A stretch of 64,000 nucleotides of DNA from Saprospiraceae bacterium. GTDB taxonomy: Bacteria; Bacteroidota; Bacteroidia; Chitinophagales; Saprospiraceae. The DNA is taken from assembly GCA_020627965.1 (NCBI GenBank), contig JAHDFX010000005.1, positions 219 through 64,218 on the forward strand, given 5' to 3'. The position numbers were made by a program, and so were the translations under genes. Below are positions 6,070-45,955 of the stretch, piece after piece. The notes beneath the pieces are model-generated. The model was not told the origin of the DNA, did no database searches, and saw only the letters and a program-made list of their open reading frames with translations. Numbering within the stretch: position 1 is the stretch's first letter; the number at the start of each line of letters is the position of its first letter.

Positions 6070-7020
6070 TTATTCAGGAAACCCAAGATGAAATAAGGCA
6101 TCACCCAGACTTACCACAGGTGCATTATTATGTCCTACGATATAGCCATCACGACTAGCCAACACTGGTACTTGCTCTAAGCCTTGTGGGTCATTGATAT
6201 GTCCCAAAACCTCCCCTTCTTTTACTTCTTCTCCTGATTTTCGATACCATAGAAACAAGCCTGAGCGTGGAGAGCGTATCCAGGTTGTATCCGTGAAAAG
6301 TGTATAATCATGCTTCGGGATATTGACTTCGTCAATCATTCCTAAATGTGCCATTAATCGTTTTAGTCCATCCAGCCCTTCATCAATAGAATGTTGGTCA
6401 TAACGCAGCGATTCGCCTCCTTCATATACCAATATAGGTTTTCCTGCTTCTTTAGCTGTTTTACGGAAACTTTTATTGATTGCTTTATTTTTAATCAAAT
6501 AAGGTGAGGCAAATACTTTTGCCAGTTTCTCTGCTTCCTCATCGCCTATTGAAAAACGAACTTGCGGGTAATTGTAACGACTAGCTCCACCTGTATGGTA
6601 ATCGACTCCATAATCCATTAAAGGAATGATCTGGGTACTTAAGGTATGTGCAACCCTTGATGCTAATGAGCCATTTTCATTACCTGGAAAACTCCGATTA
6701 ACATCTTTTCCGTCAGCCAAATCACGAGAAAAATTAATAAAGCCGTATATGTTGACCAGAGGAATAGCAAGCACATTGCCCTTTAATAAACTTTTGAATA
6801 GTCCCGATGTAATGGCACGACGAACGATCTCTACTCCATTGACTTCATCACCATGTACACCTCCGGTAACGGCTAGGGTAGGCCCTGGTACTGCACTTCG
6901 AAACACATGTAAAGGTAGATGTATCTCTGTTCCAGAAGGTAATTTTGCAATGTCAAAGTGTACTATTGCATTCTGTCCGGGCACAATTTTGTGTCCATCA
7001 ATTTCCATAATATCGATCAT
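6070..7020 (-). CDS. succinylglutamate desuccinylase/aspartoacylase (AstE/AspA) family zinc hydrolase
   Basis: GGVHGDEVNG zinc-binding motif and NRSFPG; 316 aa. There is a 4-nt overlap with rimK. Confidence 0.8.
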   Translation of the reverse strand: MIDIMEIDGHKIVPGQNAIVHFDIAKLPSGTEIHLPLHVFRSAVPGPTLAVTGGVHGDEVNGVEIVRRAITSGLFKSLLKGNVLAIPLVNIYGFINFSRDLADGKDVNRSFPGNENGSLASRVAHTLSTQIIPLMDYGVDYHTGGASRYNYPQVRFSIGDEEAEKLAKVFASPYLIKNKAINKSFRKTAKEAGKPILVYEGGESLRYDQHSIDEGLDGLKRLMAHLGMIDEVNIPKHDYTLFTDTTWIRSPRSGLFLWYRKSGEEVKEGEVLGHINDPQGLEQVPVLASRDGYIVGHNNAPVVSLGDALFHLGFPE

Positions 7021-7907
7021 CCTCTTTGTTTTTTGACTTTACGCTCAAGATACATAATTATTTTACGCGCCACATCTACATCTGTTGTTTTCTCGATACC
7101 CTCCAGCCCAGGCGAAGCATTTACTTCAAGGACTAAGGGACCTCGATTGGATTGCAACATATCAACACCAGCTACATCTAAGCCCATAGTAGCCGCAGCT
7201 TTCAGTGCTGTTTTTCTTTCCAAATCTGTTAGTTCGATGGGTTCGGCTATTCCTCCCTGATGTAAATTGGAACGAAATTCTCCTTTTCGGGTAGCTGTTC
7301 TTCGCATAGATGCCACCACCCTTCTTCCAATCACAAAAGCCCGGATATCAGATCCAGCACTTTCTTTAATAAATTCCTGAACAATAATACGAGTACGTGT
7401 TTTGTTGAAAGCTTCTATGACAGATTTAGCCCCTCTATGGCTTTCTGCCAAAATAACTCCATAGCCCTGTGTTCCTTCCAATAACTTAATGATCAGCGGA
7501 GGTCCTCCGACCATATCTATTACTTCATCTACATTGCTTGAATAATTTGTAAATACCGTTCTGGGTGTCCTTACTCCTACTCTTGATAATAATTGAAGGC
7601 TAGTCAACTTATCGCGAGAACGCCAAAGAGCTTCTGCCGTAACAGTCGTTATGACATTCATCATTTCAAATTGATTAATTACAGCAGCACCATAGAAACT
7701 GGCTGAAGCCCCTATTCTTGGAATAATCGCATCTATTCCCTTGACTTCTCTTCCATTATAGTACAAATGAGGTTTTTTGTTCTCCATCATAATGATGCAC
7801 TTCAAATGAGGTATTCGTATAATATTGTGTTCTCTTTGAACGCCTGCTTCTAATAAACGTTTAGTAGAATAAATCGTAGATTTTTGAGAAAGAACAGCAA
7901 AATTCAT
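7017..7907 (-). CDS. rimK: ATP-grasp ribosomal protein S6--L-glutamate ligase RimK
   Basis: From the Met at 7907 the protein aligns along its length with E. coli RimK as recalled from memory (MNFAVLS..STKRLLEAG..; LLEGTQGYGV; FRSNLHQGG; EVNASPGLEGIE). Confidence 0.9.
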   Translation of the reverse strand: MNFAVLSQKSTIYSTKRLLEAGVQREHNIIRIPHLKCIIMMENKKPHLYYNGREVKGIDAIIPRIGASASFYGAAVINQFEMMNVITTVTAEALWRSRDKLTSLQLLSRVGVRTPRTVFTNYSSNVDEVIDMVGGPPLIIKLLEGTQGYGVILAESHRGAKSVIEAFNKTRTRIIVQEFIKESAGSDIRAFVIGRRVVASMRRTATRKGEFRSNLHQGGIAEPIELTDLERKTALKAAATMGLDVAGVDMLQSNRGPLVLEVNASPGLEGIEKTTDVDVARKIIMYLERKVKKQRG

Positions 7908-8941
7908 AGTCTTTACATTTATGAAGTCATATATAAATAAGCTCAAATGGTTGATAGAAAATGAGCAAATTGATAGAATTTCAGACAAGCTCCAAGCTCA
8001 TATTCTTATACAATAATAAGGTTTAGAAACCATTTAATACCCTATCAATAAAGAAAAAATTTAGATAACCGATTTCTTCCATGTGTTTTTTTGCCATATA
8101 AACATATTTATTAGTATATTTAGGACACTTACCTAGTTGACAAGAAAATAGAATACTCCTAATTCACTTATTGAAAGTTTTTTATACAAAGACTTAAAAC
8201 GCAATTGAATTAAAATTTATACAAAAAAAATCAATTTAATTGCTAAAAGTGCTTTTCTATGTCACAATTTTACACATCATTTATATTCGATAGAAATGCC
8301 ACCTATTGAACTATAAATCAATATATTAAACATAATTAAGCGTCAATAAATCACACAAAATAGGCTTGAAAATGAATTGCATATGCCAGATATTCGGGGC
8401 ATTTTTGAGTATTGTCATTACAATTAGTATACTCCTTTTCTCTACAACTAATTATTAAACCATAAACTTAGTATCATTATGTTGATTTGGATAATTGATT
8501 TATTAACGCTTTTGGGCTTATCTCAAAAAGGTTATTCTAAAAATGTAACCAGGAATTCGGTTTTTGACGACACTGAAGCATAGCATATTTTAAACAAAAA
8601 CTCTTCCTAACTACAGCAAAACCAACACAGGCACAAACGGAAAAAAACCTCACGGCAAATGATAAATGTGCCTAAGTCCCAAGGAACCAACAAAAGCAGT
8701 TTATTCAAGGTATATCCAAAAATAGAATATAAATTATACAATAATATTTAAATAAATCCTAAACAAACCACTCAATCAACTCCTCTAATATTCTACCATT
8801 CACAAGAGCCTACAGAATGTCACTAATTCACAGAACTGTATCAATTCAATTTTGATAAAATGTAGTTTAAAAAACTCTATTTCAGATAAAAACACATAAA
8901 AAGACTTCCTTTTTCCAACCAAAAGAGTATTGAAAATTGAC

Positions 8942-8972
8942 TTGCAGATAATTATCTTCTCCTGCATATTTG
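8942..8972 (+). promoter_or_regulatory. candidate Bacteroidota promoter (TTG-N20-cATATTTG)
   Basis: TTG at 8942..8944, a 20-nt spacer, and CATATTTG at 8965..8972. This has one mismatch to the -7 consensus TAnnTTTG. Confidence 0.45.
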
Positions 8973-9084
8973 CAGTGTACAATGTTTTTCTCTGCTGAGT
9001 TTCTTCTTGTATAAAGATGATGTTTCCTCCAGGGTTCAGTGTTCCTTTTTTAGCCTTTTAGGTTCACTGAACTCTATTTTTTTT
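8969..9084 (+). ncRNA. candidate small RNA / micropeptide unit, copy 1
   Basis: Direct repeat of 9264..9380. It ends in the hairpin GTTCAGTG(9034..9041)/CACTGAAC(9065..9072) followed by T8. It contains the mini-ORF 8982..9014 (MFFSAEFLLV). Confidence 0.5.
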
Positions 9085-9236
9085 GCATTTTTTAAACCCA
9101 CTCCATTTCTGCTACCACGCCAAAACTCAATTCTACATCAATTTAATGTAAAAAAAGTACAAAAAAGCCATTGTTAGTCAATCACTTGCAGTGAAATCAA
9201 TGCAAAAAAACCGCAAAAAATACACTTAAAATTAAA

Positions 9237-9267
9237 TTGTATTTCACAAATTTTCATGCCACTTTTG
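9237..9267 (+). promoter_or_regulatory. candidate Bacteroidota promoter (TTG-N20-cACTTTTG)
   Basis: Same -33/-7 geometry as copy 1, although the surrounding upstream sequence is poorly conserved. Confidence 0.45.
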
Positions 9268-9380
9268 CAGTGTACAATGTTTTTCTCTGCTGAGTTTCTT
9301 CTTGTATGAAGATGATGTTTCTTATAGGAGTTCAGTGTTCCTTTTTTAGCCTTTTAGGTTCACTGAACTCTTTGTTTTTT
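9264..9380 (+). ncRNA. candidate small RNA / micropeptide unit, copy 2
   Basis: About nine-tenths identical by eye to 8969..9084. Same terminator hairpin plus a T-run. Mini-ORF 9277..9309 encodes the same 10 aa with a TGA stop instead of TAA. Confidence 0.5.
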
Positions 9381-9386
9381 ATTCCT

Positions 9387-11297
9387 CTATTTAGCGACTA
9401 GCAAACGTTTACGCCCTATTATCCTCTCATTTTCCTGTAAAACAACATAATACACACCTGCTCTCAATCTTAGCTCCTTTGCAGATACTTCCACCTGATG
9501 GGTTCCAACTTCTTTATAACTATTTTCAATATTGGCAATTTGTCTGCCAAGTGCATCAAATAACCTTATATCAATATGAGCAGGATTTGGTAATTGATAA
9601 GTAATTCTGGTGCTATTAGAAAAAGGATTAGGCGCAACATCCCAGATAAAGTCATCTTTATTTGTCTCTGAAACAGCAACATTAATGTCTTCTATAATTT
9701 CAATTTGTTCATTAATAGGGACATCTGTAATTATTTGTGTGCCACAACCAGGCCAACGAATGATAAGTGAATCCACTTCCTGAATATCTGCTAGCCCAAA
9801 GTGTACAATGCTCGAATGTTGTGATGAGTGACTTGAACCTCCGTCAACTTCTCTCATAAACGTCCGCCCATCTGCCTTTAAGTATATCTGCGCCCCATAG
9901 GCATCTCTATTGGTTTCAACACCTTGCAATTTCACCTTAAGCCAATTGTGTTCATTGTCCGTGTCATTCCGATATAATATAACATGCTCATAATAATCTG
10001 GCTCAAAGAAAAAACGATTAATAATCACCACCATCATGTCTAAATCACCGTCATTGTCGTAATCGCATAAAGCCATTCCTCTCCCTACATGCGAATCATC
10101 TACCCCTAATGAATCCGCCAGATCGGTAAATGTACCGTCCTGATTGTTCACATACAATTTATTCGGGTCACCAATGGTCGTTGCAATAAAGTCTGCTGCG
10201 GGAACATAACCATTACACACATACAAATCAAGATAAGTATCATTATCATAGTCAAAGAAGGCATTTCCCCAACTAGTTACTAATAATGTATCTACTGAAG
10301 TATTTTCCACTCCTGCGGCAGTTGCCTCATCTGTAAACGTACCATCACCATTATTACGCAGTAAGGAATTTCTACCTAAATTAGAGATATAATAATCAAG
10401 ATCCAGGTCTTCATCATAATCTCCAATGGCAATCCCCATAGCATATATGCCTATATCCATGCCCGTACTAGCTGTAACATCTGTAAAACTATCGGAAGGA
10501 TAATCATTCTCTAATAAGACATTAGGCTCCACCCATTCACCAAAGTCATTGGCGACTAAAATATCAGGATCACAATCATTATCATAATCCGTCGCAGCAA
10601 CCGCTAAACCACATCCCGCCTTTAGTAAACCTTGCTGAACACTGACCTCTCTAAATGTATTGTTGCCATTATTCATATACAAAAAATCAGGATAGCAAAT
10701 ATGTGCAAAACCACTTAATTCATTGGTAATGCTATCTGAAATAAACCCAGTTTGCTCTACATAGTTGGTCGCATAAATATCCAGATAACCATCAAGATCA
10801 AAATCTCCAAAGGTGGCAGCAGCCGTCCATGCACTATCAATAATACCGGCTGATAATGAAATATCTGTAAACGTTCCGTCTCCATTATTGTAATATAATA
10901 AGCAATGTGCATTAATTTCATTAGAAAAATTAAAGCCCCTTGTACCTATAAAAACTTCCCGGTAGCCGTCATTATCAATATCTCCGGTAGCCACACAATG
11001 TGACATGACTTCAGCAGTGGCTCCAAAACCCGCATCTATGCCGATTTCAGAAAAAGTGCCATCTCCATTATTAGCGTAAAGGCGATCTCTGTCTTGTCCT
11101 CCCGTAATATACAGGTCTTCCAAACCATCATTATTGTAATCGAAAAAAGCTGCACCACCACCCATGAACTGCTCGTGGTCAACTAGAAAATCAATACCTG
11201 CATCATAACTAACGTCAGTGAATCCCTGCCCGGTTAGTTGTTGAGATAAAAAAATGGATAAAGTAATAAGTGAGTAGATTTTTTTCATGATTGTCAA
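9387..11297 (-). CDS. FG-GAP/VCBS-repeat, ASPIC/UnbV (CRTAC1-like) protein with T9SS C-terminal sorting domain
   Basis: Repeated DxDxDGxxD FG-GAP-type motifs; an UnbV_ASPIC-like RDAYGAQIYL..GGSSHSSQHS; a C-terminal NPFSNSTRITYQL...LLVAK CTD; and a signal peptide. Confidence 0.85.
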   Translation of the reverse strand: MTIMKKIYSLITLSIFLSQQLTGQGFTDVSYDAGIDFLVDHEQFMGGGAAFFDYNNDGLEDLYITGGQDRDRLYANNGDGTFSEIGIDAGFGATAEVMSHCVATGDIDNDGYREVFIGTRGFNFSNEINAHCLLYYNNGDGTFTDISLSAGIIDSAWTAAATFGDFDLDGYLDIYATNYVEQTGFISDSITNELSGFAHICYPDFLYMNNGNNTFREVSVQQGLLKAGCGLAVAATDYDNDCDPDILVANDFGEWVEPNVLLENDYPSDSFTDVTASTGMDIGIYAMGIAIGDYDEDLDLDYYISNLGRNSLLRNNGDGTFTDEATAAGVENTSVDTLLVTSWGNAFFDYDNDTYLDLYVCNGYVPAADFIATTIGDPNKLYVNNQDGTFTDLADSLGVDDSHVGRGMALCDYDNDGDLDMMVVIINRFFFEPDYYEHVILYRNDTDNEHNWLKVKLQGVETNRDAYGAQIYLKADGRTFMREVDGGSSHSSQHSSIVHFGLADIQEVDSLIIRWPGCGTQIITDVPINEQIEIIEDINVAVSETNKDDFIWDVAPNPFSNSTRITYQLPNPAHIDIRLFDALGRQIANIENSYKEVGTHQVEVSAKELRLRAGVYYVVLQENERIIGRKRLLVAK

Positions 11298-17237: not shown

Positions 17238-17267
17238 TTCTTGCATAATTCGTATTTGCTTCAAAAT

Positions 17268-17302
17268 AAAAAAGGCAATCTGAAATTCAGATTGCCTTTT
17301 TT
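17268..17302. terminator. bidirectional intrinsic terminator
   Basis: A-run, then the 9-bp stem GGCAATCTG/CAGATTGCC (17274..17282 / 17288..17296), then T6. It lies between convergent genes. Confidence 0.8.
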
Positions 17303-17321
17303 ATTCGGTATATTTTTAATC

Positions 17322-19256
17322 TTAGTATCCAGCACCTGGATTACCAGAATAAATTGTACTACCTCTAGAAGAACCAGGAGTGTCTTTTCCAACAGTATCC
17401 CAGTTTCCACTGTACGCAGGACGTCCCATTTCAGCTTCGCCTCTAGCAACTCTAAATTCTACACGACGATTCATGTATTGAGCTTGCTCTTTTTGACGAC
17501 TAGTTCCAACATGGTCATCTCTTAAGCCTGCAACGATTGGATTAGCTTCACCGCTATACTGAAGAACCATTCTACTTCTGTCAATACCATAGTTATTAAC
17601 TAAGTAGCTGATAGCTTTCTCAGCACGCTTGTAAGATAAAACATCATTATAAGGATTTGGCTTACGTGCATCTGTGTGACCAGTAACAACTACTTGTAGA
17701 CCTGGACAACGCAACATTGTATTCGCAACATGGTGCAGTTGTGGATAAAATTCAGGCTTCAAGTAATATTTGTCTAAATCATAGTGTACCATTGGTAAGA
17801 ACCACTCATTAGAACATATCTCTGGTGCAGGTGGCATAATGATTTCCTCTTTCCATCCTAATCTATCACCGATAGCAATAACATCAGCTTCAGTTAAACC
17901 TTCATCAGGAATTTGAGCAACTCCATCAGGATCTACTGGATAACCAGGAGGAGAATAAGGCTCCTTATCTTGACAATCAGGTACACCATCGCTGTCACTA
18001 TCAAGAGTAACACCGCGAGTATCTACAGGACAATCAGCAGGAGTGTTTGGTTCTCTATCCAATTTGTTAGGTACACCATCTCCGTCATCATCATCTAATT
18101 TATCACCTTCTTGCTTTTGAGTATTCACAGCAATCTGCTGATAAGGTGCATCAAGAGGATTCAACCACCATAATGGCTCAACTCTCTTCTTGAAGCTTCC
18201 TAAATGGAAGTTTAGACGTAAGTTTGTGTAGTGAGGAACATCTACATCACGAGTGAAATCTACATCAGAATTAGGAGTAGTACCTGAATCATGCCAACGA
18301 TAACCATCTAGAAGATCATCATCAGTAAAAGTAGACTGATGCTCAACAGATAAAGTAATACGCTTGCTTAAGCGATAGCCTACACCTACACCTACGTTTG
18401 CGATGGCTTTTCCTACTCTAGTTGCCTTATCTCCTAAATCTGTAGTTCCTGGGAAATTCCACAAATTACCCCAAACCTCACCAGGAGTTTCGAAGTCACC
18501 GTCTAGAATATCATCTTTAAGAATTTGACGAATTTCCTTTCTTCCTTCACGAGTATCTCTATCCAAATCTCCACCTGGATTAATTCTCACTCGAAGATTA
18601 TTGAATTCATCTTCATAGACACTGCCTCCATTCAAAGCATCATAATTTACACTATATAAATTACCTCCAATTCCACCAATCAGGAATAAATCCCATTTAT
18701 TTCTTTCTTTGTGAAATTTAAGATTATTAAGTGTAACAATACCCTGAACTGCTGCCTCAATGTACTTATTTTCATAATTAGCAAACCAAGGAATACCAGA
18801 ACCAACTCTACGAACTTCATTAGTACCTGCATCAGGAGCAAATACAATGAAAGAGCCATAGCCACGATCACCTACAGAACGAAGTTCACGGTTAGCGTAA
18901 GCACCTGACATATTAGGTTGGAAGTTAAGTCCTTTAGTAATACCATAATGTCCCGTCAATCTAACAGAGAATAAATATCCCATAGATTTACGTACAGAGG
19001 CTCCGAAAGCATAACCAGGTAGTCCTGGCCATGGATTAACGTCACCTGTAATCATAAACATACCTCCGTGAATACCAAGTTCCCACATGTCTCTTGGCTT
19101 TGAAGGATATTTTGTTTTACCAGCCTTCCATTCTTTATGTTGGCCATCTGGATCTTTTACAACCTCATCGTCATAGATGTTAGGTTGGGCAAAGGCCATC
19201 GTCCCGAAAAGGAATGTGAGGGCCAATGCAGATAAAAAGTTGAGTCTCCTTGTCAT
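17322..19256 (-). CDS. OmpA-family outer membrane protein with thrombospondin type-3-like Ca-binding repeats
   Basis: DDDDGDGVPNKLD and DSDSDGVPDCQD repeats; a C-terminal OmpA domain (NRRVEFRV); a signal peptide. Confidence 0.9.
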   Translation of the reverse strand: MTRRLNFLSALALTFLFGTMAFAQPNIYDDEVVKDPDGQHKEWKAGKTKYPSKPRDMWELGIHGGMFMITGDVNPWPGLPGYAFGASVRKSMGYLFSVRLTGHYGITKGLNFQPNMSGAYANRELRSVGDRGYGSFIVFAPDAGTNEVRRVGSGIPWFANYENKYIEAAVQGIVTLNNLKFHKERNKWDLFLIGGIGGNLYSVNYDALNGGSVYEDEFNNLRVRINPGGDLDRDTREGRKEIRQILKDDILDGDFETPGEVWGNLWNFPGTTDLGDKATRVGKAIANVGVGVGYRLSKRITLSVEHQSTFTDDDLLDGYRWHDSGTTPNSDVDFTRDVDVPHYTNLRLNFHLGSFKKRVEPLWWLNPLDAPYQQIAVNTQKQEGDKLDDDDGDGVPNKLDREPNTPADCPVDTRGVTLDSDSDGVPDCQDKEPYSPPGYPVDPDGVAQIPDEGLTEADVIAIGDRLGWKEEIIMPPAPEICSNEWFLPMVHYDLDKYYLKPEFYPQLHHVANTMLRCPGLQVVVTGHTDARKPNPYNDVLSYKRAEKAISYLVNNYGIDRSRMVLQYSGEANPIVAGLRDDHVGTSRQKEQAQYMNRRVEFRVARGEAEMGRPAYSGNWDTVGKDTPGSSRGSTIYSGNPGAGY

Positions 19257-37663: not shown

Positions 37664-39493
37664 TCATAATTTCTCCTCCAGCCACATCAGCCCCCAGCAG
37701 GCTAACAGACCAATATAAAACCACCAAAGCGGGAAAGGCTTCTGAATGTTTTTCCTCAATTTCGGCGGCTGAATACTAGTGGTTTTTTGCCGACTTTGCC
37801 AATCTTTATTTGACCAGATGCGCTGAGCTTTTTGTAAAGCTTTCCAATCTGTATTATCATGAACATAGAGCCACTGACTGACTTTTGAATCTTTAGTAGA
37901 TAAGGTATTCCAGCCTGCTGTTTTCGGGCGAACAGTGCCTTGCCATTGTTCAGGATTATAGGGATGCTGGGCAAGATGGAAGCTAGTGTTCTCTTTATTA
38001 GCAGTAAGCTGCCCTATGTTTTTTTTACTTGTGCTGTATAACTGTAATCCGGCGGGCTGACCGCTAAAAACCAGGGCATCGTCTTTGACAGACCATTGGC
38101 GGTTTTCAGGACTGGCTTTATTGATGGTTGTTAGAATTTCATTCCATAGGGCATTGTATAAAGGCTTTTTTCCGTCTAAGCGTATTTTATAAGTTTGATT
38201 GCTACGAAGAAGGGCTATTCTGCCATAGCCTTTAGAGCGATAAGCAGCTATTTCCCCTTTTATGGGGACAGATTTATTACCAAAAGAAATCCCATTCAAA
38301 GGCAGTTCAAAATCTTCTTTTTGCTCAAATTGTTCACCTTTGATAATTTGCTTTTTTTCTGTGGATTTGGTGGCTGCAAAATCGAGAAAGGTCTTATTAA
38401 AACCAGCCCCTAAAGCCGGATTAATGGCTTTTTCATCTCCCCATATGACCATGCCCATGCCTTTGTTGATGGAAGTTTTCAAGGCTTGAAGTTCTTCATT
38501 GCTAAAATTATGTAAGGCTTTGCTACTCGTCAGAAATACATCTATATCGGCTAGTAAACTGGGGGTGATTTTATCCAGATTGGTCTTTTCAAAATTGATA
38601 AATTCTGTTTTAAACTTATTGCGGGAAACCGCCGAACGTACTGCTATTCCATGCCCTTTGTCCGACCAGTGATTTTTGAAATATTTGGACTCGAAGGAAG
38701 GCGCATCATTGACGATAAGCATGTTTAGCTTTTCTTTTGGAGCAATGAAAACGGGGAATCGCTCACGATTGAATACTTTACCATTTTGGTCTTTGGAGAC
38801 CAATTGAAACAGGTATTTTCCTTCTTTTTTTAAAGGCTGTTTTAAATCAAAAAAATAAACCTTTGGTTCAGTAACCTGAATAGAATCTGTCGCTCCGCTT
38901 TGCCCTTCCAAAACCAAGGTATAAGGCTCATTATTATTATGTTGATAACGTCCTTGTACAAAGAAAATCTCATCTACTATCCAGTGTTTTTTATAGCCTG
39001 TTTCTATAATGCCTTCCGGCAAATCATTTAATAAAAAATGGGTTTGTAAGCCTTTAAAATCAGGTAATTCATGATTTTGTAAGCCATTGCCCAATATGTA
39101 TACCAATTCCAGTCGGGGAAAATTTCGAGGTAGGTAAGACGCATCAGGAATTTGCTGTACAGCCTGATCGAAACCCAGAACAGGTAGAGTAGAAAATAGC
39201 TGGGCATCAGGCAATTTCGTTAGTAAACTATCTGCCTGATTTTGGTCAAACTCATCCGTCAACAATATGGCTGTAATGGCTTTTTCATGGATATAAGTAA
39301 AAGGTCGAAGCCCTAATAAAAGCAGAAAAAAGACCGATAATAAGACCAAAGGAATACGCAACCAAAGCCGACTTTTATCTGGTCTGCGAATAGCAATTAT
39401 TAATACAATAAGAGCGAGTACTACTGCTCCGGCCATCATCCACTCTGCATAGGGTGAGGGCGTCAGAAACTCTATGTCTTGCAGCCTTATCAT
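37664..39493 (-). CDS. hypothetical membrane-anchored protein (last gene of the BatA_N operon)
   Basis: 609 aa with N-terminal and C-terminal TM helices. There is a 4-nt overlap with the upstream gene. Confidence 0.75.
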   Translation of the reverse strand: MIRLQDIEFLTPSPYAEWMMAGAVVLALIVLIIAIRRPDKSRLWLRIPLVLLSVFFLLLLGLRPFTYIHEKAITAILLTDEFDQNQADSLLTKLPDAQLFSTLPVLGFDQAVQQIPDASYLPRNFPRLELVYILGNGLQNHELPDFKGLQTHFLLNDLPEGIIETGYKKHWIVDEIFFVQGRYQHNNNEPYTLVLEGQSGATDSIQVTEPKVYFFDLKQPLKKEGKYLFQLVSKDQNGKVFNRERFPVFIAPKEKLNMLIVNDAPSFESKYFKNHWSDKGHGIAVRSAVSRNKFKTEFINFEKTNLDKITPSLLADIDVFLTSSKALHNFSNEELQALKTSINKGMGMVIWGDEKAINPALGAGFNKTFLDFAATKSTEKKQIIKGEQFEQKEDFELPLNGISFGNKSVPIKGEIAAYRSKGYGRIALLRSNQTYKIRLDGKKPLYNALWNEILTTINKASPENRQWSVKDDALVFSGQPAGLQLYSTSKKNIGQLTANKENTSFHLAQHPYNPEQWQGTVRPKTAGWNTLSTKDSKVSQWLYVHDNTDWKALQKAQRIWSNKDWQSRQKTTSIQPPKLRKNIQKPFPLWWFYIGLLACWGLMWLEEKL

Positions 39494-41937
39494 TTCAATG
39501 ATCTCAAATATAGTTTTTCAAGGCGATTTTTGCTGTATTTTCTTGAAGCTGGTTCATAACGGGTATCAGGCAACACACGCATGAATGCCCCTTGAATATC
39601 TGTCAGCAAAGTGGGTAGAACAGCCTTCGACACCTCCCCTTCAGTCAGCATTTTTATCTGTTTCAATGTCGCAAAATAATTCCCTGGACGAACCAGTGCC
39701 AGCCCTGCCAATTCCTGTCCTGCATCGGTCAGCAGACTTCGCTCTGCACGGTTAGGTAATCTGTTTTCTTGTTTTAATATTTCCAATATATCTACCGATT
39801 CTAATATTGCCGGATAAGGCTTTTCATTGTCCTGTTTTTTGGCTGATTCGGTATTTTTAATCTCCTCCAATTCTCCTGTTAGCCGTTTTTCAGCGACATT
39901 GATGACTGGCGCCTCAAAACCAATGCGTTCTACATACACCCTCGACGCCTGCTGCACTTCTTTCAATAATTTCAAAGCGGCATATTCATACTGCAAAGCT
40001 TTTTCAGGCTGATACAAACGCAATTGTAATTCAGCATCCCACATTTTACTTAGCGAAGCCCGCAGTTTAGCAGCCGTTGACTGATCGAAAAAAGTGGACT
40101 CTTCCATGTTATCGTGCATATGCATGTAGCCTTCTAGCGGGTTTTCTTCCTGGGTTTCGTCTCCGCCGCCATGATCGTGCCCGTGGGAATGATCGTGTTG
40201 ATGTGTTGAGGTGTTGTGGTGTTGATGTTCTTCGTGGTCATGGTTTTCATCATGGTCATGGTCGCAATGTTCACCGTGTTCATGGTCATCATTGTGTTGA
40301 TGTGATTGGTGTTCTTCTTCCGCTTCTGAACCATGCTCACAATGCTCACCGTGATCGTGATGATGATCGTGATGATGATGTCCATGTTCTTCATCTGCAT
40401 TGCTTCTTGTTATATTAATACTGATACTGTCATTATTATCCTTCTCTATTGCTTCTGGTTTTTCGCTGCTCACTTCTCCAATAACTGTTTCAAACTCTTC
40501 TCCGAGGAAACGTCCATACCGGAGACGCAGAATTTTCTGATCGGCTGCTATGTTATTACTCGTTTCATTAAATTCTGTGGTGCTTATTTTACCTTTTTGA
40601 GCAATCAGTTTTTCTGTATCTATAATGATCTGTCGCTGACTACGAAAATAGGCAGGCATTCTATCTAAAGCCATTTTACCTTCCATATCCCAATCGACAG
40701 AAGTTGTATCTTCAAAGGCTATGATGTATTTGTAAGTACGAGATGTTTGTGGATCGGGCCGACGATTATCCGTAGCTTCTACATGCAGATATAATTCATC
40801 ACCAGGTTCCATGCCTAGTTTATGCAGGTTCAGCTTGTGTGTGAGATTATAATTTCGCTGACCGCTAATTTTCTCCTTGAAATATAAAGTATCATCTCTG
40901 AACTTGACCGCTTCACCTTCTCCCCGACTAAGTGTGGCAACCATACGAGCATCCTGAATCCCATAATCATCTGTCAGATGGGCTTTAAACGAGATCGTTT
41001 TCAGGGTATCATAGAAATAAGCAGCATAAGGTTCTAAATCTTTAATAGAAATATCTGGAGCCACATCAGGAATTGCTTCCAGTTTGTAGTAATCGCTGGT
41101 CTTTTTATTGCCTCTTTTATCCGTATATTCTATGCTGTATAAGCCTGTTTTTTCCAACGTCATTTCAGCCGTATAAGTATTTCTACTTTTCTTTTGCAAT
41201 GAGATTTTATCAGCATTTTGAAATACAATAAAGCCAGACTGAATACTGCCTGTAAAACGAATTGTCCAGTTGAGACGGGAGAATTGCGGAGCTTTCAAAC
41301 CAGGAGATTCAGCCGTTCTTCCTGACAAATTGGTATAGGCTGGTGGCGTATATTTTAATTTGATCGTTTTAATGGAAACATCAGGATTTTTTGTCGGGCT
41401 AATCGACGTATTATCCGGTTTTTTATTTTCTTTTTCAACAAGGACACCAGTCAACTTCTCTGTTGAAATCTGGTAGAAATAAGGCTTTAAATATATTGCG
41501 CCGAAGGCGACCAAAGCTCCAAAACACATGGATAAAAAAGCTCTTCCCGCATAATGAGGCAGGCGGATATTTTTCTGTATTTCTACCAGCTTGTTGTTAA
41601 TCTTTTCTTTTTGTAAAATCGCTAAAGCGGGTAAATTTCCATTATTGTCCAGCAGGAGGTCGGCACTATCTTCCAGTTCTGGATATTGTCGATTGAGATA
41701 AGTAACCAGGTCAGTTTTACTGGTGGAAAATAGACGAAATTGTTGTAAATATGCCAGTAGGCTGGTTGCAAAGGTCAGTCCGGTAATTTTTGTTAGTAAA
41801 GTGGTTTCAACTTGAAATAAATAGATAAAAGCTCCGACTAATAAAGTCCAGAACACAGCCCACAATATAGCCTCTACTCCTCTGAACATTCGCCAGCGGT
41901 TGAGGAGTTGGTTTAGAATGTTTTTTTCTGCATTCAT
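39490..41937 (-). CDS. DUF4175-like membrane protein with a His-rich tract
   Basis: 815 aa with two N-terminal TM helices. The His-rich tract is aa 516..589. The DUF4175 assignment is from memory of its C-terminal helical region. Confidence 0.8.
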   Translation of the reverse strand: MNAEKNILNQLLNRWRMFRGVEAILWAVFWTLLVGAFIYLFQVETTLLTKITGLTFATSLLAYLQQFRLFSTSKTDLVTYLNRQYPELEDSADLLLDNNGNLPALAILQKEKINNKLVEIQKNIRLPHYAGRAFLSMCFGALVAFGAIYLKPYFYQISTEKLTGVLVEKENKKPDNTSISPTKNPDVSIKTIKLKYTPPAYTNLSGRTAESPGLKAPQFSRLNWTIRFTGSIQSGFIVFQNADKISLQKKSRNTYTAEMTLEKTGLYSIEYTDKRGNKKTSDYYKLEAIPDVAPDISIKDLEPYAAYFYDTLKTISFKAHLTDDYGIQDARMVATLSRGEGEAVKFRDDTLYFKEKISGQRNYNLTHKLNLHKLGMEPGDELYLHVEATDNRRPDPQTSRTYKYIIAFEDTTSVDWDMEGKMALDRMPAYFRSQRQIIIDTEKLIAQKGKISTTEFNETSNNIAADQKILRLRYGRFLGEEFETVIGEVSSEKPEAIEKDNNDSISINITRSNADEEHGHHHHDHHHDHGEHCEHGSEAEEEHQSHQHNDDHEHGEHCDHDHDENHDHEEHQHHNTSTHQHDHSHGHDHGGGDETQEENPLEGYMHMHDNMEESTFFDQSTAAKLRASLSKMWDAELQLRLYQPEKALQYEYAALKLLKEVQQASRVYVERIGFEAPVINVAEKRLTGELEEIKNTESAKKQDNEKPYPAILESVDILEILKQENRLPNRAERSLLTDAGQELAGLALVRPGNYFATLKQIKMLTEGEVSKAVLPTLLTDIQGAFMRVLPDTRYEPASRKYSKNRLEKLYLRSLK

Positions 41938-45009: not shown

Positions 45010-45624
45010 ATGAACTCAATAACATTTGGAGAATTGATAAAAGAAAGAAGATTGGAGCAAAAACTAGCACTGAGAGAAGTGGCAGGTGCTATAAACTTTG
45101 ATCAGTCTCTACTTAGCAAAGTAGAAAGAAATAAAATAGTGGCGCCTCAAAAGATCATTATGCCACTTTCAAAATGCTTGAAACTAGATTTTAAAGAATT
45201 GCAAATTAAATATTTGAGTGAGCGCATATATCGTGAGTATAAAGAAGTGGAATTTACATTGGAAGCTATGCAGATTGCAATAAAACAACTGGAAAAAGAG
45301 CATTCGGGAAATTCAGCTGAATTTCGACGCAAGAGTATGATCACTAAAATAACCCGGTATCTTGAAAAACAGCCTGTAGAAAAAGTCTGGTTATTTGGTT
45401 CATTTGCAAGAAATGAAGAAAATGATGACAGTGATATAGATATATTAGTACGCTTTACAAATTCGAGTAAAATGGATCTATTTGAATATATTGGAATCAG
45501 ACAAGATCTTGAAGATTTAACTGGGCGACCAATAGATTTAGTGGAAGAAGGATACGAATTAGAAAAAGCAAAACCGTCTATTTTTGAAGAAAAACAGTTG
45601 ATCTATGAGAGAAAAACTATCTAG
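45010..45624 (+). CDS. mntA: XRE-type HTH domain fused to an MNT nucleotidyltransferase (type VII antitoxin-like)
   Basis: The N-terminal HTH (LALREVAGAINFDQSLLSKVERNK) and the C-terminal GSFARNEENDDSDIDILV (GSxxRG..SDxD motif). Confidence 0.8.
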   Translation: MNSITFGELIKERRLEQKLALREVAGAINFDQSLLSKVERNKIVAPQKIIMPLSKCLKLDFKELQIKYLSERIYREYKEVEFTLEAMQIAIKQLEKEHSGNSAEFRRKSMITKITRYLEKQPVEKVWLFGSFARNEENDDSDIDILVRFTNSSKMDLFEYIGIRQDLEDLTGRPIDLVEEGYELEKAKPSIFEEKQLIYERKTI

Positions 45625-45955
45625 AAAAGATAGACTAGAGCATATTATTGAGGCGATTGATCGTATTTTTCGATTCGTAGAAGATATGGATCATGAGGAA
45701 TTTGATGTTCATGAAATGGCGCAATATGCAGTTATCAAAAACTTTGAGATCATAGGAGAAGCCGCTTACCAAATCCCAAAGGAATTTAGAATGGCGAATG
45801 AAGAAAAAATCGAGTGGCGCAAAATTATTGCTTTCAGGCATATATTGGTTCATGATTATTATAAGATCAATACGATCATTATATGGAATGCTATTGAAAA
45901 TAAGCTGAGCGGTCTAAAAGTAGAAGTAGAAAAATTACTGGAAGCAGAAGAATAG
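45605..45955 (+). CDS. hepT: HepT (DUF86) RNase toxin
   Basis: Rx4HxY motif (RHILVHDY); 116 aa. There is a 20-nt overlap with the MNT gene. Confidence 0.8.
   Translation: MREKLSRKDRLEHIIEAIDRIFRFVEDMDHEEFDVHEMAQYAVIKNFEIIGEAAYQIPKEFRMANEEKIEWRKIIAFRHILVHDYYKINTIIIWNAIENKLSGLKVEVEKLLEAEE

Follow-up and report, generated by a model that had tools for sequence, protein, structure and literature searches.

Tandem candidate small RNA genes, each with a promoter-like site and an intrinsic terminator, conserved at the same position in two Saprospiraceae genomes

In a stretch of 64,000 nucleotides (nt) from a Saprospiraceae bacterium (assembly GCA_020627965.1, contig JAHDFX010000005.1, positions 219 to 64,218 of the forward strand; hereafter the window, whose own numbering is used below), two direct repeats at 8969-9084 and 9264-9380 of the plus strand form a pair of tandem units, each preceded by a promoter-like site and ending in a hairpin followed by a T-run. 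We propose with moderate confidence, from the sequence and its conservation, that these units are paralogous, independently transcribed genes for a non-coding, trans-acting small RNA (sRNA) of ~105 nt in a Saprospiraceae lineage. An earlier reading of this DNA from the sequence alone had suggested stand-alone genes for either a small RNA or a leaderless micropeptide; the former option is supported by the recovery, in a second genome, of two syntenic tandem copies that are ~90% identical to those of the window, with the conservation bounded by the promoter-like site on one side and the terminator on the other.

Every sequence feature described in the sequence-only reading exists where that reading had placed it, and the repeats themselves are closer than the nine-tenths identity it had estimated by eye. 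They resolve into two blocks, 8969-9033/9264-9328 (65 nt, 94% identical) and 9034-9084/9330-9380 (51 nt, 96% identical), whose spacing differs (295 and 296 nt, respectively) because of a 1-nt indel between the units. The window contains two exact occurrences of a 31-mer taken from the unit, as against none in 100 dinucleotide-preserving shuffles. The differences between the units include, as had been noted, a cluster directly 5' of the terminator hairpin (9027-9033), together with an A/G substitution at 9012, within a potential stop codon, and two positions in the T-run.

Using the protein encoded by the convergent gene next to the units, an FG-GAP protein described below, as the query of a homologue search, we reached relatives with 73, 65, 65 and 57% identity; exact look-ups of the flanking proteins, with ORF starts both as called mechanically and as corrected, had matched no record. 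The closest of these (P0002; 73% identity by BLASTP, 72% by global alignment) is encoded on a 314-kb contig, CALFBH010000041.1 (hereafter L001), of the metagenome-assembled genome of an uncultured member of Saprospiraceae, which retains the gene order DPP-IV, peroxidase and FG-GAP gene, followed downstream by a 1.8-kb stretch without a called gene. This stretch harbours two tandem copies of the unit, in convergent orientation to the FG-GAP gene, at 10533-10410 and 10030-9911, which are 88-92% identical to those of the window over ~120 nt (unit 1 is 92% identical to L001 10410-10533) and lie 503 nt apart, as against 295 in the window; the second ends 3-5 nt from the FG-GAP stop codon. The tandem arrangement and the position are thus common to two species. 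The related metagenome-assembled genomes derive from ENA assemblies ERZ6863577, ERZ6864208 and ERZ6864290 and run ERR9287619. Elsewhere the two genomes have diverged considerably: the flanking proteins are 72-85% identical, three flanking orthologous genes show 70-78% identity at the DNA level with only 33-42% identity at four-fold degenerate sites, which is near saturation, and the spacer around the units is unalignable apart from a single island of 47 nt. When 110-nt windows were taken across the 10-kb collinear block, their median identity was 75% and the 99th percentile 91%, placing the units (89-92%) at about the 99th percentile, at a level matched only by the most conserved cores of the transketolase and DPP-IV genes. 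As an identity of 88-92% stands against near-saturated four-fold sites and an unalignable spacer, the conservation goes beyond neutral expectation and indicates that the units are under strong purifying selection.

Upstream of each unit is a promoter-like site on the plus strand, read directly from the sequence: in unit 1 (8942-8972) a TTG at 8942-8944 in the -33 position is separated by 20 nt from the -7 box CATATTTG at 8965-8972, and in unit 2 (9237-9267) the TTG at 9237-9239 is followed at the same distance by CACTTTTG at 9260-9267. These are exactly the sites that had been singled out as matching the Bacteroidota promoter geometry with one mismatch, the sigma-ABfr consensus being TAnnTTTG at -7 and TTTG at -33 (PMC7366714). 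A four-way alignment with flanks shows the TTG-N20-CAnnTTTG geometry in register 5' of all four copies. Upstream of the window copies essentially only A-TT-A-TTG at -33 and CA--TTTG at -7 are shared while the rest differs, and the relative displays the same two motifs in the same register; that the -33 TTG and -7 CAnnTTTG are the sole upstream positions common to the window copies and the relative supports the earlier suggestion that selection maintains the promoter-like signal. In the same alignment, conservation starts at the TTTG of the -7 box, skips a variable triplet (CAG, AGC or AGA), resumes at 8976 with TGTACAATG and stops at the T-run. Transcription would accordingly be expected to start ~4-7 nt past the -7 box and to yield an RNA of ~105 nt. 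For unit 1, the candidate sRNA gene spans 8976-9084 on the plus strand (~105-109 nt; predicted 5' end at ~8976-8979 and 3' end within the T-run; covariance model score 134 bits), and for its paralogue in unit 2, 9271-9380 on the same strand (125.7 bits).

The predicted RNAs are unusually stable, folding at -24.8 kcal/mol for unit 1 and -27.7 kcal/mol for unit 2 with z-scores of about -4 (-4.1 for unit 2, and -4 to -5 across the copies), and none of 200 shuffles was as stable. The RNAalifold consensus comprises three elements, namely a 5' stem-loop (SL1), a linker and a 10+3-bp terminator hairpin, with all 23 pairs standard in each of the four copies; the four consensus pairs that vary are each altered on one side only, yielding G-U or U-G. 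In SL1 (8976-9013 in unit 1), a predicted outer stem, UGUACAA/UUGUAUA, would enclose two internal loops of 7 nt each that are rich in U and C, an inner CUC/GAG stem and a UGCU loop; the 10 pairs of SL1 are standard in all four copies and its sequence is invariant apart from the A/G difference in the 9012-9013 region. The linker AAGAUGAUGUUUCCUCCA (9014-9031, ~19 nt), predicted to be single-stranded, has an invariant first part of 13 nt, whereas its last 5-6 nt make up the variable patch, reading CCUCC in three of the four copies. The intrinsic terminator of unit 1 (9032-9084), delineated from fold energies and z-scores, consists of the 10+3-bp hairpin at 9032-9074 and a T-run at 9075-9084. The corresponding parts of unit 2 are SL1 at 9271-9308, the linker at 9309-9327, the hairpin at 9328-9370 and the T-run at 9371-9380.

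Both units contain the GTTCAGTG…CACTGAAC hairpin and T-run that had been reported from the sequence alone, and these have the make-up of a Rho-independent terminator, with 13-16 bp in a G+C-containing hairpin followed by 7-8 T residues. Our simple terminator scan did not call them because their apical loop exceeds the 8-nt limit that it used. They further point to the plus strand as the transcribed one: the U-run follows the hairpin on this strand only, the minus strand having no T-run there, and the substitutions in the hairpin give G-U pairs only on the proposed strand. The most divergent copy, the second of the relative (L001_uB), is instructive in this regard, since a change of TTCAC to AATAT in its 3' arm closes the internal loop on the proposed strand, leaving a continuous stem of 16 bp (-28.9 kcal/mol, z -5.2), but opens an internal loop on the opposite one (-19.5 kcal/mol, z -2.7).

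The 5' half of each unit also includes an open reading frame (ORF) of ten codons, MFFSAEFLLV, which in unit 1 runs from the ATG at 8982 to the TAA at 9012-9014 (8982-9014, plus strand) and in unit 2 from the ATG at 9277 to the TGA at 9307-9309. As the sequence-only reading had pointed out, it is kept in both units with the stop preserved through a change of TAA to TGA, and we find it retained, with one or the other of these stops, in all four homologous copies, with its nucleotides identical throughout, wobble positions included. This might be taken to mean that the units are genes for short mRNAs, with the decapeptide as their functional product, or as a second product beside the RNA: the frame is intact in every copy, and the sole substitution spares the stop. 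The pattern of constraint, however, speaks for a different explanation. Apart from the A/G at 9012, the four copies share 48 unchanged nt between 8976 and 9026, and this block takes in all nine degenerate codons of the frame and 13 nt past its stop, besides reaching back to the 5' end, so that on either side the invariance extends farther than the ORF. The probability that a conserved degenerate residue is encoded by the same codon in both genomes is 0.507 in the flanking genes; accordingly, nine degenerate codons without a single synonymous change have a probability of ~0.002 if the peptide alone were selected, and the substitution pattern of a coding sequence is absent. Because the wobble sites and the 13 nt past the stop are invariant, the constraint operates at the level of the nucleotides rather than the peptide; and because the whole region is invariant, retention of the ORF is in itself uninformative. 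The change from TAA to TGA is likewise neutral between the two interpretations because it also turns the pair that closes the predicted 5' stem from U-A into U-G.

The position of the start codon argues in the same direction. The AUG probably lies 3-5 nt from the 5' end, for which reason the mRNA would not be truly leaderless, and it would sit partly within a stem; it thus conforms neither to a leaderless start nor to the A-rich unstructured leaders typical of Bacteroidota. The other small frames (a 31-residue one at 9306-9401 and a 14-residue one from 9018) differ between the window copies owing to the indel and were set aside. Taken together, the unchanged wobble sites, the invariance past the stop and the start codon a few nucleotides inside the RNA disfavour the leaderless micropeptide as the main function; we regard a micropeptide or dual-function gene as quite unlikely, and the ORF as probably incidental to the RNA.

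The units occupy the right end of an A+T-rich interval of ~1.48 kb devoid of genes (7908-9386; 23-34% G+C), which holds only short ORFs that are unconserved between the copies. It is bordered on the left by a gene for a RimK-type ATP-grasp protein (7017-7907, minus strand) and on the right by a convergent gene (9387-11288, minus strand) for an FG-GAP/UnbV_ASPIC protein with a type IX secretion system (T9SS) sorting domain (Por_Secre_tail), as identified by Pfam; a di-haem cytochrome c peroxidase gene and then the DPP-IV gene lie beyond it. The T9SS domain, together with the promoter type, points to Bacteroidota as the phylum. In neither genome does a same-strand gene follow the units, the next gene being convergent in both, in agreement with the earlier view of them as stand-alone units rather than leaders. 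Gene order thereby largely refutes the notion that they are orphan leader-peptide attenuators, or other cis-regulatory 5' elements, in which a Phe/Leu-rich ORF and a terminator control read-through. A short Phe/Leu-rich ORF followed by a terminator does resemble amino-acid attenuators, and a weak alternative pairing of CUGAGUU with AGUUCAG can be drawn by eye; but neither the minimum free energy nor the centroid fold of any copy contains an antiterminator, and no Rfam leader or riboswitch matches, making this explanation very improbable.

A cis-acting role is another reading to be weighed. Only 6 nt separate the end of unit 2 from the stop codon of the convergent gene (9387), and in both genomes the last unit lies 3-6 nt from the stop of this same gene despite a rearranged other flank and the differing spacing of the copies (295 versus 503 nt). 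Moreover, the FG-GAP gene has no U-run terminator on the minus strand, which makes read-through across the units plausible. The units could hence be elements linked in cis to the FG-GAP/T9SS gene, acting as antisense to its read-through 3' extensions or as a transcription barrier or insulator, with no targets in trans. Against this, the upstream copy is 300-500 nt away from the gene and yet equally conserved, a pure terminator or insulator needs neither an invariant 50-nt 5' half nor a promoter of its own, no unit accompanies the gene's homologues of 65% and 57% identity, and linkage in two genomes may amount to undisturbed synteny; we therefore deem it unlikely. A combined version, in which the pair would be a lineage-specific module tied to the FG-GAP/UnbV-ASPIC (CRTAC1-like) gene, acting in trans via the 5' half, in cis against read-through 3' extensions and possibly also through the decapeptide, strikes us as a doubtful prospect; if true, such a riboregulator would operate in two or three modes and belong to a class of Bacteroidota from which no sRNA is known to have been described.

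On the promoter side of the units synteny breaks down: in place of the RimK gene of the window (7017-7907) one finds in the relative (L001 11737-12030) a short fragment of the HTH_Rpn_C type, beyond which lie genes for PNPOx, YceD and L32. A rearrangement, possibly Rpn-associated, that adjoined the locus thus left it undisturbed. The remainder of the gene-free interval (7908-8940; ~1 kb, 23-31% G+C) has no ORF longer than 44 residues and no RNA-family match, and the 1.8-kb gene-free stretch of the relative at the same place is similarly long but not conserved in sequence. The 47-nt island mentioned above, at 8627-8673 (L001 11032-10987, minus strand), is 89% identical in this otherwise unalignable spacer and lies 300-450 nt upstream of unit 1. 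In it a conserved loop of 33 nt (AAAAACCTCACGGCAAATGRTAAAT) is closed by an AGGCAC…GTGCCT stem; the fold does not clearly beat shuffles, Rfam gives no match, and the island might be a regulator-binding site or a piece of another RNA.

We then compared the units with known RNA families. Rfam 15 yielded no match at gathering thresholds anywhere in the window, be it to tRNA, rRNA, riboswitch or other families, and at E<=10 the region 8000-9500 gave only chance-level matches, none of them on the units' own strand; the lone match overlapping a unit was to U6 (E 0.61; 16 bits against a gathering score of 44), in unit 2 and on the opposite strand. The inability of the sequence-only reading to place the units in a known family therefore holds. 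The FopS/GibS family of Bacteroides, whose FopS consensus has been deposited in Rfam (PMC11697453), was not matched in Rfam 15 at E<=10, the presence of the FopS model in that release being unconfirmed.

The distribution of the units appears to be narrow. An exact 20-mer from the invariant core, searched in one genome from each of ~186,000 species, recovered only the two copies on L001 and no others in the whole assembly of the relative; a match on a Cyclobacteriaceae contig proved to be a chance coding match (…YLSAEFLLG…). A shifted 20-mer found no unit in a metagenome collection, all eight of its matches falling in a single G+C-rich coding sequence unrelated to the unit, searches of viral contigs with three 20-22-mers recovered none, and BLAST searches of phages and plasmids returned nothing similar. 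Such exact-match scans are blind to diverged homologues, so "narrow" describes a lower bound on the distribution; the covariance model R1 for its part, run on the window, on L001 and on L003-L006, which include the loci of more distant relatives, detected no diverged copy, its one marginal match (17262-17353) being an ordinary gene-end terminator.

Two incidental observations emerged from these searches. A viral contig (L017; IMGVR_UViG_3300010327_000084) contains at 9141-9165 a 25-nt exact match to the core, CTCTGCTGAGTTTCTTCTTGTATAA, lying antisense inside a 297-residue phage ORF (…LYKKKLSRD…). Because its flanks are unrelated we judge it coincidental; it is nonetheless long for chance, and the 5' half of the sRNA would find a perfect complement in the phage mRNA. 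On the contig of the 57% FG-GAP homologue, L004 10292-14434 carries a tandemly duplicated two-gene module, coding for a 499-residue Por_Secre_tail protein and an 89-93-residue protein, beside a phage-type integrase.

This distribution also bears on whether the ~115-nt repeated unit with its internal inverted repeat could be a selfish or mobile element comparable to miniature inverted-repeat transposable elements (MITEs) or REP-like sequences, for which the sequence-only reading had named dispersed copies with target-site duplications as the mark. The window has just two copies, arranged in tandem and pointing the same way, and an exact 20-mer likewise recovers only the two known copies from the whole assembly of the relative; terminal inverted repeats and target-site duplications are wanting, the sole inverted repeat being the terminator hairpin; the position is syntenic in two species; and the metagenome, viral, phage and plasmid collections gave no matches. 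As no dispersed copies, terminal repeats or target duplications were found, we consider the family narrow and of low copy number, and a mobile origin extremely improbable.

Returning to the proposed pair of sRNA genes, we envisage that each unit would be transcribed from its own housekeeping-sigma promoter, with TTG at -33 and CAnnTTTG at -7, into an RNA of three parts: the 5' stem-loop with its two 7-nt U/C-rich internal loops, the ~19-nt linker, and the long terminator hairpin with its U-run. By analogy to GibS and FopS, the invariant, U/C-rich and largely unpaired 5' half would most likely constitute an extended seed, which might pair in trans with purine- or A-rich translation-initiation regions of mRNAs, such as are typical of the phylum, and thereby repress them. 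The two copies could provide added dosage or, by means of their differing promoters and the variable patch before the terminator, partly distinct regulation.

Several observations weigh against this proposal. The pattern TTG-N19-21-YAnnTTTG is common by itself, with 17 sites in the window against 9.7 +/- 3.0 expected, and every one of the four copies departs from the consensus at the start of the -7 box, with C in place of T; as the pattern alone is only mildly enriched, the argument for a promoter rests on its in-register recurrence and not on single matches. The alignment comprises four sequences from two genomes, and the two copies of the relative may not be independent. None of the consensus pairs shows compensatory, two-sided changes, and the shuffle control equalled the observed value; given four sequences and no two-sided change, covariation carries no statistical weight. 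The ten-codon ORF, intact in all copies, is compatible with translation, and the absence of a unit downstream of the FG-GAP homologues at 65% and 57% identity marks a narrow family. Finally, among 47 translation-initiation regions of the window the best duplex reached -30.6 kcal/mol, which is within the range of shuffled sRNAs (-27.2 +/- 2.5). This top site, a two-segment pairing around the start codon of a DUF4175-like gene (39490-41937), was rejected as a target since it is absent from the orthologue (L020 10001).

The DUF4175-like gene (minus strand) encodes an 815-residue protein without a Pfam match, its homologues being annotated as DUF4175. The orthologue in the relative (L020 9030-12523) begins 11 nt downstream of a Transposase_31 (Rpn-family) gene, which is missing from the window, and because this gene precedes only the relative's copy, the 5' regions of the orthologues are unrelated. 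The scanned translation-initiation regions also included that of a gene for a HepT-like ribonuclease (45605-45955, plus strand), the toxin of HepT/MNT toxin-antitoxin pairs.

Work on regulatory RNAs in Bacteroidota has centred on gut Bacteroides. Saprospiraceae are abundant in aquatic habitats and activated sludge; a full-text literature search for Saprospiraceae with "sRNA" found no paper. The present pair offers a comparatively supported candidate with defined boundaries and an invariant putative seed of ~50 nt, which could seed an Rfam family and guide target prediction when complete genomes or metatranscriptomes of the lineage come to be studied. It is very probably a pair of unannotated sRNA genes specific to a sub-lineage of Saprospiraceae, of an ordinary type that reveals no new principle.

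In having a small conserved ORF the units recall the dual-function sRNAs SgrS/SgrT and RNAIII/delta-haemolysin. The peptides of these are 26-43 residues long with coding-type conservation, whereas the ORF of the units has 10 codons and is conserved at the nucleotide level. The arrangement finds a closer parallel in OmrA/OmrB and PrrF1/PrrF2, two pairs of neighbouring sRNA genes on one strand that have individual promoters and terminators, near-identical ends, and differences in the middle of the RNA before the terminator. The units are likewise tandem, with near-identical ends and differences in a patch before the terminator, although they bear no sequence relation to these RNAs, which are proteobacterial, Hfq-dependent and governed by OmpR and Fur, respectively. 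The nearest counterparts by phylum, with an anatomy that the predicted RNAs resemble, are the high-confidence intergenic sRNAs of Bacteroides defined by Ryan et al. (2020). Such an sRNA is expressed from a sigma-A promoter of its own, has ~35% G+C and a conserved 5' part that is for the most part unpaired, and ends in a Rho-independent terminator; among them, GibS and the 14 FopS paralogues repress mRNAs whose translation-initiation regions are bound by an extended 5' seed (PMC7366714, PMC11697453). Repression via a 5' seed is also the mechanism that we propose for the units. They differ in showing no sequence or Rfam similarity to GibS and FopS (the R1 seed was not directly compared), in occurring in a Saprospiria-type lineage rather than Bacteroidia, in having two tandem copies with no phage copy found, as against 14 dispersed ones in the case of FopS, and in a 5' half predicted to be a stem-loop with internal loops rather than fully single-stranded. 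Thus, the architecture of Bacteroides sRNAs, with a sigma-A promoter of the -33/-7 type, a U-rich 5' seed, an intrinsic terminator and paralogous copies, probably extends to distant classes of Bacteroidota.

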